A stretch of 64,000 bases of DNA, from assembly GCA_964565195.1 (NCBI GenBank), contig CAZMCQ010000003.1, positions 24,080 to 88,079 on the forward strand, in the 5' to 3' direction. The stretch comes from an uncultured Candidatus Saccharibacteria bacterium (GTDB lineage Bacteria; Patescibacteriota; Doudnabacteria; UBA920; 2-01-FULL-46-14). A program made the translations under genes and the position numbers. Shown one piece after another: positions 35,343-37,520 of the stretch. Under the pieces are notes generated by a model that was given only the letters and a program-made list of their open reading frames with translations, was not told the DNA's origin and did no database searches. Position 1 is the stretch's first letter, and each line of letters opens with the position of its first letter.

Positions 35343-36390
35343 AAACGATCCGCTTGACAACCTCGACTACGACGTCATGCCAGGGGTTGGCAATGCTGCA
35401 CCACGGTTGGCCATTGACGTAAAGCCCGCTGCGCCTACGACGCCTGCGGTTCCGCCTGTCATACATGGCCATTGGAATTGGCGCGTCATCGGTATTTCCG
35501 CGGCCGGCGCGCTGCTGTTTGTTAGTCTCTCGCTTTGGGCCTACTGGAAATACGTGGTGAATTACGATCCCGAAGGGGAGAGCGCGCCGTCAAACGCCAG
35601 CAACATCATCGTGCCTCCGCCAGAGAACAACACGGACACGGATGCGGACGGGCTTACCGACAGCCGCGAGGAAGAACTCGGCGTCGATCCGGGAAAAGCC
35701 GACAGCGATGGCGACGGCTTGGCGGACGGCGATGAGGTCAACGTTTACCACTCGGATCCGCTTCTGCCAGATACGGACAGCGATACTTTCCAGGACGGAC
35801 AGGAGGTCAAGGACGGCTATGATCCAGCGGTAAATTCCGGCAGCAAAGCGCCGGCGGAAACATTGAAATTGTGGGAGGACCGCATCATTGAATTTGGCCT
35901 GCACGAGCCGACCAAAACGACTCTGAATGTGCCGGCGCAAAATGAGCAAACCATGGAAACCCCGGAGGCAGCAGTTTATGCGAATGCCGTTTTTAAATAT
36001 TCCACGGCCGTGCCGAATCTCCTCGAGGTGCGCGAATCAAGCGATAAACGCAACGTCGGCTTCCGCATCAAGGGCGCGGCGGTGGAGGACGAGGATGTCA
36101 CGACTGACCCGATTTATATCACAGCCGCGGTCAATGCCGGCGGGGAAACTTTGCGCGAGTGGGTGGCTGGGCAGTACCAGCCCGCCACGGACTATGATTC
36201 GCTGCAGGAGCTGAAAATCAACGGCATTGACGCAATCAGGATTACCGGCGTGGCGGGCGAGATTTGCGACGGCAACAAAGTTTTTGTGGCCAGGGATACT
36301 GCGGTTATCATCCTCACCTGGCAGTGCAACAATATTGCCGCGTTTGGCCAGCTTTTTGATCAGATTGTGCAGAGCTTTAAATGGCAATGA
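35329..36390 (+). CDS. Membrane-anchored protein with thrombospondin-type-3-like Ca-binding repeats
   Basis: TM helix then repeated DTDADGLTD / DSDGDGLADGDE motifs. Confidence 0.5.
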   Translation: MDKNKNDPLDNLDYDVMPGVGNAAPRLAIDVKPAAPTTPAVPPVIHGHWNWRVIGISAAGALLFVSLSLWAYWKYVVNYDPEGESAPSNASNIIVPPPENNTDTDADGLTDSREEELGVDPGKADSDGDGLADGDEVNVYHSDPLLPDTDSDTFQDGQEVKDGYDPAVNSGSKAPAETLKLWEDRIIEFGLHEPTKTTLNVPAQNEQTMETPEAAVYANAVFKYSTAVPNLLEVRESSDKRNVGFRIKGAAVEDEDVTTDPIYITAAVNAGGETLREWVAGQYQPATDYDSLQELKINGIDAIRITGVAGEICDGNKVFVARDTAVIILTWQCNNIAAFGQLFDQIVQSFKWQ

Positions 36391-37520
36391 TCGTTACTAA
36401 TTCCGACGAGGAAGCGCGACTAAAAAAAGAATTGGAAAGCCGAACCGACGCAGAGTCAAGACGGATGCTGCGTTATTTAAATCTGCCTGATCTCTCGCGA
36501 ACAACAGGCAGCCCGATTTACGAACTGGTCCAGCGAATCGTCAAGCTCCCCGGCTTTAAGGATTTTGATCTCGTTGCTGCTCCGGAGATTACGCCCGCCG
36601 AGATTAGCTTTGACCTGTTCGATTTCCCGGCTGACCATCCGGCCCGCTCCCGCTCCGATACGTATTATGTAGATGACCAGCATATCCTGCGCACGCACAC
36701 GACCGTGATGTGGTACTACCACTTGCAGGATCCGGCCGTGCGGGCCAGCATCCAGAAAGGCGGGCCGATCGGCGCCTTATCCTACGGCAAAGTTTACCGC
36801 AAAGACGAGATTGATCGCAGCCACATGAATATCTTTCACCAGATGGATGGGTGGTATTTGACGACGCGGGATAAAAAAATCATCGGCGTGGAGGATTTGC
36901 AGAACGTGCTGATTGCGATCGCCCGCGCCGTCTTTGGAGAGGAGGTAAAATACCGCTTTAACGAGGATTCCTTTCCCTACACTGATCCGAGCCTCGAAAT
37001 GGAAGTTGAACGCGACGGGCGGTGGGTGGAGATTCTGGGGTGCGGCGTGGTGAGCGGCCGCGTGCTGCAAAAACTCGGCGTGAACCCCGAGCAATACAAT
37101 GGCTGGGCGTTTGGCATGGGCATTGAACGGCTCGCGATTTTGAGCATGAATTTGCCGGATATTCGCCTGTTGTGGTCGCGGGATCCGCGTGTGACAAAGC
37201 AGCTGAAATTGGATCAAAAATTTCAGGAGGTCAGCAAATATCCGCCCATCACGCGGGACATCTCTTTTGTGGTCGGGAAGGACTTTGTCCCAAATAATTA
37301 CTTTGACCTCATCCGCGACATTGGCGGAGATATCGTAGAGGAGGTGGAACTTTTGGATAAGTACGCGGACGCGGCGAAATTCGGATCAGATAAAATTAGT
37401 TACACTTACCGCGTGGTTTACAGGAGTCCTGATCGGACATTAAAGGTCGAGGAAGTCGAACCGCTGCAGGATAGACTTTATGAACAAACAAAGGTACAAT
37501 TCAAAGCAGACTTGCGATGA
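36381..37520 (+). CDS. pheS: Phenylalanine--tRNA ligase alpha-type catalytic subunit fused to a C-terminal FDX-ACB anticodon-binding domain (monomeric, mitochondrial-type architecture)
   Basis: PheS motifs [37 protein letters not shown]; C-terminus [14 protein letters not shown]...LLDKY...[10 protein letters not shown]...ADLR matches FDX-ACB. Confidence 0.7.

Follow-up and report, generated by a model that had tools for sequence, protein, structure and literature searches.

Reviews present bacterial phenylalanyl-tRNA synthetase (PheRS) as an (alpha-beta)2 heterotetramer that edits through a site in its beta subunit, and they regard a single-chain form without editing as mitochondrial (PMC3275996; AARS Online, PMC11580382). 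Indeed, AARS Online places this form, PheRS-M, under FARS2 only (PMC11580382), and we found no description of a bacterial single-chain PheRS in the openly accessible literature. The stretch of DNA analysed here (the window, 64 kb) comes from a Candidatus Doudnabacteria-like organism and contains a gene in which a PheS-type catalytic core continues into a ferredoxin-fold anticodon-binding (FDX-ACB) domain. This raises the question of whether the encoded protein serves its organism as a single-chain PheRS.

A PheS-type core and an FDX-ACB domain in one chain

The gene and the parts of its product are as follows.

36381..37520, + strand: single-chain PheRS gene, whole; 379 aa plus stop, PheS-type catalytic core and C-terminal FDX-ACB (ORF list, Pfam)
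36381..36509, + strand: N-terminal helical region, residues 1-43, with helices 9-20 and 24-34 in the structural model
36510..37208, + strand: class II PheS-type catalytic domain, residues 44-276 (PF01409)
37209..37232, + strand: junction, residues 277-284, linking the segment that corresponds to the PheS C-terminus (…RVTKQLK) with the beginning of FDX-ACB (KFQEVSKYP…)
37233..37517, + strand: FDX-ACB domain, residues 285-379 (PF03147), with predicted G34 contacts D326, Y328, S340 and R379

Another gene call (P0001) uses an alternative start at Met3, which gives a protein of 377 aa. The original prediction, made from the sequence alone, was that the protein has all the PheS catalytic motifs and carries FDX-ACB after motif 3. 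The motifs that it quoted were all located (HPAR at 86-89, FPYTDPS at 198-204 and motif 3 at 241-252), as was motif 2 at 136-157, and motifs 2 and 3 could be aligned to E. coli PheS. PF01409 (tRNA-synt_2d) matched residues 44-274 (E=4.3e-57, 193.9 bits). The fusion was confirmed by the PF03147 profile, the entire length of which (1-94 of 94) was matched by residues 285-379 (E=6.5e-21, 75 bits vs a gathering cutoff of 31.1). Both Pfam scores are far beyond chance level. These were the only two Pfam domains in the protein, which is without the B3/B4 editing domain or other beta-subunit modules.

The two ends of the junction could be placed by alignment with the E. coli subunits. The end of E. 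coli PheS (…RFLKQFK) pairs with residues 270-276, and the start of the B8 domain of E. coli PheT (…REISRFPANRRDIAVVV) pairs with the start of FDX-ACB. At the other end of the protein, residues 1-43 are a short remnant where canonical PheS has a coiled-coil arm of about 90 aa: the Pfam search of the 379-aa protein gave no match to PF02912 (Phe_tRNA-synt_N), only 43 residues lie N-terminal of the core, and E. coli PheS could be aligned only from its residue ~75 on. Compared with canonical (alpha-beta)2 PheRS (E. coli 3PCO, T. thermophilus 1PYS/2IY5; TIGR00468 and TIGR00472), the protein has the same catalytic motifs and Phe-specificity residues, and its FDX-ACB is homologous to PheT B8, but this B8 equivalent is on the alpha chain and the coiled coil of PF02912 is missing. 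Furthermore, no B1, B3/4 (editing), B5 or B6/7 was found in the gene or its neighbourhood.

The closest known counterpart is mitochondrial PheRS

The mitochondrial-type architecture that had been proposed was borne out, human mitochondrial PheRS (mtPheRS) being the best match both by sequence and by full-length three-dimensional comparison. In the PDB it was the best sequence match (E=3e-61), aligned from about residue 59 to 369 of the query in two stretches. The AF2 model (pLDDT 90, pTM 0.84) gave 3CMQ, 5MGH and 8P8X as top Foldseek matches, with TM of 0.76-0.77 (query) and 0.71-0.72 (target) and an rmsd of 3.2-3.4 Å over about 390 columns; with the closed form of mtPheRS, 3CMQ, the TM was 0.77/0.72 across the full length. 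Bacterial PheS chains, in contrast, covered the core alone (TMq about 0.54).

Like mitochondrial PheRS (FARS2 3CMQ/3TUP, yeast Msf1, 'PheRS-M', TIGR00469), the protein is one chain with a PheS-type core followed by FDX-ACB, both are without the B3/B4 editing domain, and both have the junction motif …PDIRL(L/F)W..D.R..KQ(L/F) then KFQ..SKYP. Unlike the mitochondrial enzymes, it is encoded by a bacterial gene among housekeeping genes and begins with a short helical region of its own; the tree of catalytic domains puts it in a different clade, and many relatives have a PheT-B2-like companion. An insertion of about 25-100 aa that splits the core of the eukaryotic forms is not present in it.

The protein scored 242.1 with TIGR00469, below the cutoff of 258.35, and its relatives straddled that cutoff (above it, P0121 at 264.3, P0478 at 261.3 and P0489 at 265.6; below it, P0497 at 255.3, P0044 at 244.0 and P0007 at 235.1). 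With TIGR00468, the canonical PheS model, it scored 169.5, below the cutoff of 237.45.

Residues for phenylalanine and for G34 are conserved

T251 and A294 of E. coli PheS, which we take to be the Phe-specificity positions, pair in the alignment with T201 and A243 of the window protein. These two residues, as well as R140, H148, F152, H153, G245 and R250, were identical in 223/223 family members.

In human mtPheRS, the anticodon base G34 is contacted by Asp364, Phe366 (the equivalent of T. thermophilus Tyr-beta731), Ser375 and Arg414 (PMC7540514). Equivalent residues were found in the window protein, with Tyr at position 328 facing human Phe366. D326, Y328 and S340 were assigned through alignment to the human segment, and R379 through its place at the very end of the chain and its alignment with the C-terminus of E. 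coli PheT. Among 223 family sequences, D326 was kept in 222, S340 in 223 and R379 in 222, and position 328 was Tyr in 176 and Phe in 47. As placed by these alignments, all four published G34 contacts are invariant or conservatively substituted across the relatives.

We propose that activation of phenylalanine and its transfer to tRNA-Phe would fall to the class II core (residues 44-276), while FDX-ACB (285-379) would read G34 through D326, Y328, S340 and R379, doing in cis the job of beta-subunit B8 in the ordinary bacterial (alpha-beta)2 PheRS. Because B3/B4, the editing domain, is not part of the chain, Tyr-tRNA-Phe would not be proofread in cis.

The gene belongs to a conserved housekeeping neighbourhood

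The following genes flank the fused PheRS gene.

29470..32445, + strand: UvrD/PD-(D/E)XK helicase-nuclease gene (Pfam), an upstream synteny marker common to Doudnabacteria relatives
35329..36390, + strand: TSP3-repeat protein gene (PF18884); its last 10 nt overlap the start of the PheRS gene
37517..39454, + strand: gyrB (Pfam HATPase_c, DNA_gyraseB, Toprim, GyrB_C); its start overlaps the PheRS stop by 4 nt (ATGA)
40263-40463, + strand: secE (ORF list)
40549-41094, + strand: nusG (ORF list)
41194-41619, + strand: rplK (ORF list)
41710-42384, + strand: rplA (ORF list)

The Pfam domains of GyrB agree with the original prediction that gyrB, and not pheT, is the next gene. Unlike in canonical PheRS, there is no adjacent pheT, the neighbours being the TSP3-repeat protein gene and gyrB. 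Downstream of the PheRS-gyrB pair, secE-nusG-rplK-rplA (40263..42384, +) form a conserved housekeeping cluster. Eukaryotic contamination was ruled out by the bacterial operon structure, the overlapping genes and the presence on the contig of gyrB, secE-nusG-rplKA, secA, secD and bacterial tRNAs.

The fused PheRS is not a singular event. Its family is large and highly conserved, with members in at least 595 GTDB species genomes, the named ones of which are all Patescibacteria/CPR. Many of the copies in CPR genomes are annotated 'hypothetical protein'. The median identity of relatives to the window proteins was 66.5% for PheRS, 62.8% for GyrB, 64.5% for L11 and 47.9% for the UvrD-like gene, so that conservation of PheRS is on par with that of GyrB and L11 and far over that of the UvrD-like gene. 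gyrB lay directly 3' on the same strand in 47/63 assessable GTDB loci and was likewise downstream of the fused gene in loci L003, L006-L010 and L095; the UvrD/PD-(D/E)XK gene was also found upstream in L006-L010. The order PheRS-gyrB-secE-nusG-rplK was repeated in Sungiibacteriota (CP066690.1), Doudnabacteria (L006/L007) and Nealsonbacteria (L095/L096). Such conserved synteny across several candidate phyla favours ancient vertical inheritance. The fused family appears to be the housekeeping PheRS in many ultra-small CPR bacteria.

A PheT-B2-like mini-protein accompanies some relatives

About a third of the relatives (23/73 assessable GTDB loci) carried a tRNA_bind gene of about 140 aa directly upstream of the fused PheRS on the same strand. 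In one of these 23 loci, and also in P0106/P0109, the B2-like protein was fused with PheRS into one ORF. The Doudnabacteria loci L006/L007 have the order TSP3 protein, tRNA_bind (137 aa), fused PheRS, gyrB; the tRNA_bind gene, which in relatives lies between the TSP3 and PheRS genes, is missing from the window, and a B2 profile search (--max) of the window's six-frame translation gave no match.

Like YtpR (NF045760) and TapR (NF045867), the companion has an OB-fold tRNA_bind domain (PF01588). Yet, it scored 87-97 bits on the YtpR model, under the cutoff of 100, and higher on the N-terminal region of PheT, its best NCBIfam match (positions 40-151, 105-119 bits). Unlike YtpR and TapR, it sits directly upstream of, or is fused to, a single-chain PheRS. 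It is homologous to PheT B2 in the canonical enzyme, and its position next to or within the fused ORF ties the family to PheRS function. When the B2 domain of P0106 was used as a query, it recovered stand-alone mini-proteins and no full-length CPR PheT. The mini-protein suggests that PheT was dismantled step by step.

We considered the possibility that the window protein is the housekeeping PheRS, but not as a lone monomer, acting either with a B2-like mini-subunit encoded elsewhere in the genome or as a homodimer. The upstream tRNA_bind genes, sometimes fused and best matched by PheT 40-151, speak for such a partner, and most class II synthetases are dimers; the separate mini-protein in many relatives indeed implies that the term 'monomeric' may fail for some family members. 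On the other hand, human mtPheRS, the closest structural match, is described as a monomer in TIGR00469, and the window and 50/73 loci are without a B2-like gene nearby (flanks covered, at most 10 kb). Moreover, the B2 domain of E. coli PheRS has been reported as dispensable for aminoacylation (Roy & Ibba 2006, as cited in PMC5370408). Taken together, a non-monomeric form of the enzyme is unlikely, though it keeps a real chance.

Is the fused protein the only PheRS of its organism?

No large ORF of the window corresponds to PheT, and when E. coli PheT and PheS were compared by phmmer with the six-frame translation of the window, matches were confined to the fused ORF; this search covered 64 kb of a genome of probably roughly 1 Mb. 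Sequence context from 80 genomes, about 1.25 Mb in all, had no further PheS and, beyond the fused ORFs themselves, no PheT B3/4, B5 or B6/7; within the fused ORFs of relatives, E. coli PheT matched the FDX-ACB end alone.

Published counts bear on the same question. In Supplementary Data 1 of Meheust et al. 2019, canonical PheS is present in 1645/2321 and PheT in 1642/2321 CPR genomes, compared with 2011-2118 of 2321 for AlaRS, ThrRS, SerRS and HisRS. No such shortfall is seen in non-CPR bacteria (PheS 1011 and PheT 1046 vs 946-1039 for other synthetases). These numbers amount to a CPR-specific, equal deficit of canonical PheS and PheT of about 370-470 genomes, counted at the level of families on incomplete MAGs and in a table that does not include the fused family, so that complementarity is inferred across the CPR rather than genome by genome. 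The equal deficit of both subunits fits with their replacement by the fused PheRS. The KO tables of further Patescibacteria papers contained no pheS or pheT entries.

Canonical pheST is retained by some CPR lineages, so that a lack of pheT is not to be presumed across the CPR. Adjacent pheT-pheS genes were found in at least one Parcubacteria-type MAG (PMX_810_sub), the PheT of which had its best match in a 'Nealsonbacteria' MAG; as another 'Nealsonbacteria' MAG carries the fused form, both may coexist in some lineage.

If the window organism had such a pair elsewhere in its genome as the real PheRS, the fused protein would be an extra paralog with another role, similar to the 'PheS-related mystery ligase SrmL' (NF051887). 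This model was the top NCBIfam match of the window protein (249.3 bits) and was matched over positions 32-345 of 349, from which SrmL proteins appear to share the core and a C-terminal domain. Among relatives that are not CPR-like, the nearest are P0124, which comes from an Oligoflexia MAG, and P0419; both lie amid accessory genes (beta-lactamase, AP endonuclease, carbamoyltransferase, glycosyltransferase, transposases), and the canonical pairs of Parcubacteria-type MAGs also lend the idea some weight. However, SrmL membership was ruled out by the curated cutoff of 300, which was reached neither by the window protein nor by any of 20 relatives tested (highest score, 271.1). No true SrmL member was recovered, and we found no description of SrmL as a ligase in the searchable literature. 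The CPR family, furthermore, has core housekeeping genes as its neighbours and a level of conservation like that of GyrB and L11, its Phe-specificity residues are invariant and its G34-recognition residues conserved, and both canonical subunits show the equal CPR-specific deficit. In addition, redundant synthetases are rarely kept in CPR genomes of about 1 Mb. We therefore regard an extra paralog as improbable.

These findings make it likely that the gene encodes a single-chain PheRS of mitochondrial (PheRS-M) design which serves this Candidatus Doudnabacteria-like (Patescibacteria/CPR) organism as its housekeeping PheRS. The protein is probably the sole, editing-free PheRS of its organism. 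The original prediction made a monomeric PheRS conditional on the lack of pheT; it is backed indirectly by the conservation and synteny at housekeeping level, by the invariant or conservatively substituted Phe-specificity and G34 residues and by the equal deficit of both canonical subunits in the CPR. Four points are inferred: aminoacylation activity, the role as sole PheRS, a monomeric state and an absence of editing in vivo. If this is true, a large bacterial radiation with a one-chain housekeeping PheRS would alter the (alpha-beta)2 picture and would be a naturally occurring example of free-standing cells that have lost PheRS proofreading altogether. It would also help to explain why PheRS is missed or mislabelled in these genomes by the TIGR00468 and TIGR00472 markers and by annotation pipelines, and would provide a bacterial comparison group for the question of the origin of mitochondrial PheRS.

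Origin of the fusion

In a neighbour-joining (NJ) tree of catalytic domains, the CPR family joined other fused forms (P0124-P0128) with a bootstrap of 91, apart from a cluster with fungal and choanoflagellate mitochondrial enzymes. As E. coli PheS was the single canonical outgroup, this tree was not used to root the origin of the fusion. A profile of the CPR FDX-ACB gave 45-84 bits with mitochondrial-type representatives and 32 bits with B8 of E. coli PheT.

One tentative scenario, which we think unlikely as a whole, is that the 'mitochondrial' single-chain PheRS was invented in bacteria. One ancestral PheS-B8 fusion would then be common to the CPR family, its fused relatives and the eukaryotic mitochondrial enzyme, and roughly a fifth of CPR genomes would have swapped (alpha-beta)2 PheRS for it, without any PheRS editing domain and, in some lineages, aided by the free-standing B2 mini-subunit. 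The opposite course, horizontal transfer from a eukaryote of the nuclear gene for mitochondrial PheRS, would agree with the preference of the FDX-ACB profile for mitochondrial-type domains and with a total similarity that is greater to human mtPheRS than to bacterial PheS, but is very improbable given the separation of the CPR family and P0124-P0128 from the fungal and choanoflagellate cluster (in the NJ tree with one canonical outgroup), the missing core-splitting insertion and the synteny kept across several candidate phyla, which argues for ancient vertical inheritance.

The 'core-only' representatives of the 50% library were also considered as candidates for canonical CPR PheS and were rejected; they nest in the mitochondrial-type cluster or are fragments, and one is from a giant virus.

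A PheS-type core and an FDX-ACB domain in one chain

The original prediction placed at 36381-37520 a PheS core with its catalytic motifs, followed after motif 3 by an FDX-ACB domain, with gyrB as the next gene and no neighbouring pheT. This was borne out by the features found there, the PF03147 profile being matched over its full length:

36381..37520, + strand: fused PheRS gene, ORF of 379 aa
residues 44-274: PheS-type class II core (Pfam PF01409, E=4.3e-57)
residues 86-89: HPAR motif
residues 198-204: FPYTDPS motif
residues 241-252: motif 3
residues 285-379: FDX-ACB domain (PF03147 positions 1-94 of 94, E=6.5e-21, 75 bits; gathering cutoff 31.1 bits)
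35329..36390: TSP3-repeat protein gene, upstream, overlapping the PheRS start by 10 nt (36381-36390)
from 37517: gyrB, directly downstream, with a 4-nt overlap with the PheRS stop codon (ATGA, 37517-37520)

Ahead of the core the chain has only 43 residues, forming two short helices; neither the N-terminal PF02912 domain nor any of the PheT modules B1 to B7 was found in it. That the PheRS gene overlaps both its neighbours suggests a single transcription unit with translational coupling. PheT was absent among the large ORFs of the 64 kb window, and the fused ORF was the sole match when a six-frame translation of the window was searched by phmmer with E. coli PheT and PheS.

Among solved structures, human mitochondrial PheRS (mtPheRS) entries ranked first (E=3e-61), their alignment running in two parts from query residue ~59 to 369. 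Next came bacterial PheS chains, over the core only, and the match of PheT chains was confined to residues ~280-379. An AlphaFold2 model built from an alignment of 32 family sequences (mean pLDDT 90, pTM 0.84; sole low region, the motif-2 loop 143-148) was superposed by Foldseek on closed-form human mtPheRS (3CMQ, 5MGH, 8P8X) across both domains, with TM scores of 0.76-0.77 and 0.71-0.72 and an rmsd of 3.2-3.4 Å, as against a TMq of ~0.54 with bacterial PheS chains.

Conservation of functional residues

In an alignment with E. coli PheS, motif 2 and motif 3 (GFAFGMGMERLT in the E. coli protein) were conserved, and T251 and A294 of that protein, two determinants of Phe specificity, aligned with T201 and A243. 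Nine positions (R140, H148, F152, H153, T201, A243, G245, R250 and S340) were identical in all 223 family sequences. In human mtPheRS, G34 is contacted by Asp364, Phe366 (Tyr-beta731 in T. thermophilus), Ser375 and Arg414, and the Asp364Gly substitution abolishes activity (PMC7540514). These contacts align with D326, Y328, S340 and the C-terminal R379 of the fused PheRS; D326 and R379 were each identical in 222/223 sequences, and position 328 was Y in 176 and F in 47. This is the pattern expected of a working tRNA-Phe synthetase.

We favour, with fairly high confidence, a single-chain mtPheRS-like enzyme. The analysis demonstrates its architecture, fold, residue conservation, family size, degree of conservation and synteny, and that pheT and B2 are missing locally; we infer aminoacylation, sole-PheRS status, oligomeric state and a lack of editing in vivo. 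The core would activate Phe and charge tRNA-Phe, and the C-terminal FDX-ACB domain, by analogy with mtPheRS, would read G34 in cis; editing in cis would be absent from such a chain.

A B2-like companion gene in part of the family

Two homologues, P0106 (507 aa) and P0109 (520 aa), have a tRNA_bind domain added at the N-terminus. Used as a query, this domain returned stand-alone proteins of ~140 aa, several of them from Doudnabacteria, and no full-length PheT. Their best NCBIfam match was the B2 region of PheT (TIGR00472 positions ~40-151, 105-119 bits). They scored 87-97 bits against the YtpR model, under its cutoff, and far more weakly against MetRS/CsaA-type domains than against PheT B2; JGI labels the protein 'PheRS beta chain'. 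Doudnabacteria loci run UvrD-like helicase, (TSP3 protein), B2-like gene, fused PheRS, gyrB. Positions of the B2-like gene immediately upstream of PheRS include:

L006, 6001-6414: B2-like gene
L008, 6001-6429: B2-like gene
L010, 6001-6429: B2-like gene, overlapping the PheRS gene

It directly preceded PheRS, on the same strand, in 23 of the 73 assessable GTDB loci, one of these being fused; a single ORF holds both parts in L019, P0106 and P0109. Since the B2-like gene occurs in some loci and FDX-ACB is in the chain, the fused family retains, of all the PheT modules, just the two that bind tRNA: B8 in every case and B2 in some. Where a relative has the B2 domain, free or fused, it would probably add tRNA affinity.

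We considered the possibility that the fused PheRS requires a B2 partner encoded elsewhere, or dimerises, which could hold together with the single-chain reading. The loci with a companion gene speak for it. No B2-like gene was found in the other 50 assessable loci (at most 10 kb of flanking sequence fetched), nor in the 64 kb window by a profile search with filters off; the window keeps the Doudnabacteria synteny without it, the TSP3 gene abutting the PheRS gene. We regard this alternative as rather unlikely.

Distribution and synteny

A search of 5.8 billion proteins with the fused PheRS gave 6,582 matches. The best 120 all had PF01409 plus PF03147, measured ~378-380 aa and were 67-79% identical to the window protein, their named sources being Doudnabacteria, Liptonbacteria, Sungiibacteriota, Paceibacterota and 'Patescibacteria group'. 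The cluster at 100% identity includes MBI4050105.1, from a Candidatus Doudnabacteria MAG, which makes an organism of this kind the likeliest source of the window. The gene was present in at least 595 GTDB species-representative genomes; the best 80 were labelled Doudna-, Yanofsky-, Giovannoni-, Nomura- and Niyogibacteria, Spechtbacterales, Minisyncoccia, Paceibacteria and 'Parcubacteria group', with many coarsely labelled MAGs. Another search extended the list to Wolfe-, Staskawicz-, Portnoy- and Nealsonbacteria.

Many MAGs with the fused form are titled 'uncultured Candidatus Saccharibacteria' (L011, L013, L019-L021 and others). Their PheRS shares 65-73% identity with the Doudnabacteria/Parcubacteria-type family; L011, L013 and L019 have the B2 gene upstream. 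These titles may be coarse placeholders rather than evidence for the fused form in Saccharibacteria proper.

Median identity to the window counterparts across loci was 66.5% for PheRS, 62.8% for GyrB, 64.5% for L11, 71.8% for NusG and 47.9% for the UvrD-like helicase, so that by sequence identity the fused PheRS is as conserved as its housekeeping neighbours. In 47 of 63 assessable loci the next gene downstream, on the PheRS strand, was gyrB, and the order fused PheRS, gyrB, secE, nusG, rplK is common to Doudnabacteria, Nealsonbacteria and Sungiibacteriota CP066690.1 (923 kb, taken as closed from its CP-series accession). Given this conservation and recurring order, the gene appears to be an ancient part of the core genome, inherited vertically. 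In CP066690.1 (L003 12174-15515), the downstream gyrB encodes 1,113 aa with an intein (PF14890), and an uncharacterised 271-aa ORF separates it from PheRS.

Sole PheRS or one of two

Some CPR lineages certainly keep a beta subunit. CPR PheRS-beta proteins lacking B2 were mentioned by Mukai et al. 2017 (PMC5370408), and Table S2 of PMC10936435, in the part covered, lists for the Patescibacteria MAG PMX_810_sub a canonical pheT (2,046 bp; B3/4, B5, CLM, FDX-ACB) adjoining a pheS (1,062 bp; PF02912+PF01409), with no second PF01409 or PF03147 protein in that part.

Genomes holding each family in Supplementary Data 1 of Meheust et al. 2019 (2,321 CPR and 1,198 non-CPR genomes; 921 widespread families only)
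Family: CPR; non-CPR bacterial
Canonical PheS: 1645; 1011
Canonical PheT: 1642; 1046
AlaRS: 2118; 1039
HisRS: 2053; 1023
SerRS: 2017; 946
ThrRS: 2011; 1027
GyrB: 1985; 1057
EF-Ts: 1983; 1046

Canonical PheS and PheT are equally short in CPR, ~370-470 more genomes lacking them than lack other synthetases, a gap not seen in non-CPR bacteria. The fused PheRS is the obvious candidate to fill it; because its architecture is not a listed family among the 921, we infer this link from family-level counts. Across ~1.25 Mb of sequence around the gene in 80 genomes, neither a second PheS nor PheT B3/4, B5 or B6/7 outside the fused ORFs was found, which is weak but consistent evidence for replacement of canonical PheRS. 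That the fused protein is a paralog beside a canonical pheST, as lineages with a beta subunit might allow, is improbable, the residue pattern across the 223 family sequences not being the one expected of a degenerating or retargeted paralog.

Relation to known families

The window protein scored below three NCBIfam cutoffs: 249.3 bits against 300 for the 'PheS-related mystery ligase' SrmL (NF051887), 242.1 against 258.35 for pheS_mito (TIGR00469) and 169.5 against 237.45 for canonical pheS. The family straddles the TIGR00469 cutoff (P0121, P0478 and P0489 above; P0497, P0044 and P0007 below), and none of the members scored reached that of SrmL. These scores fit the naming of members in public records, some as 'hypothetical protein' and others as 'phenylalanine--tRNA ligase'.

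In a library of 1.84 billion representatives, 310 were matched at E<1e-30, most full-length ones being fused. In those known to be eukaryotic (S. osmophilus Msf1, Salpingoeca), an insertion splits the core. In a bootstrapped neighbour-joining tree of the catalytic core with one canonical outgroup, the CPR family grouped with the fused P0124-P0128 (bootstrap 91), apart from a large mitochondrial-type cluster. A CPR FDX-ACB profile gave 45-84 bits with mitochondrial-type domains and 32 bits with B8 of E. coli PheT, the one PheT sequence compared.

The closest non-CPR-like fused relatives, P0124 (Oligoflexia MAG) and P0419, are surrounded by accessory genes, unlike the CPR genes, and may be paralogs. 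Their loci (L094 8001-9245 and L092 8001-9296, respectively) encode longer N-termini, with transposases adjoining in L092; both proteins are nearest the SrmL model, yet under its cutoff. Single-chain PheRS was also joined to an AlaRS catalytic domain (P0193, 872 aa), a YebC/TACO1 domain (P0232, 669 aa) and a methyltransferase (P0214, 761 aa), fusions that may be of eukaryotic origin or the product of merged gene calls. The PheRS of the giant virus Yasminevirus sp. GU-2018 (P0201) fell inside the mitochondrial-type cluster of the catalytic-domain tree.

No description of a bacterial single-chain PheRS was found in the searchable part of the literature, and AARS Online handles PheRS-M as the FARS2 family. 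Some database records already give members the ligase name, so annotation is partly present, but the biology appears undescribed. Apparently new would be a housekeeping, editing-free, mitochondrial-type PheRS in many CPR lineages and, in a third of them, a B2 mini-protein.

Other features of the window

The stretch 20032-27800 has a GC content of 41-45%, against ~52-55% elsewhere. It resembles a split or expanded set of PEP-utilising enzymes, with HAD hydrolase and phosphoribosyltransferase genes interspersed, and was possibly acquired horizontally. Positions 57349-61499 may represent what is left of a mobile element or DNA-uptake system. No tRNA-Phe gene was found in the window; tRNA genes of other kinds are given with the remaining features:

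20032-21000: lone PPDK_N (ATP-grasp) gene, low-GC stretch
21657-22730, 24868-26316, 26313-27800: three paralogous genes, each ending in a PEP-utilizers mobile domain
57349-58518: sigma-70 region 4 + HARE-HTH protein
59817-61499: TrwB/TraG-like type IV coupling protein, preceded by an unannotated 433-aa ORF
9260-9501, minus strand: tight cluster of tRNA-Asp(GTC) and two tRNA-Met(CAT)
14947-15022: tRNA-Arg(CCG)
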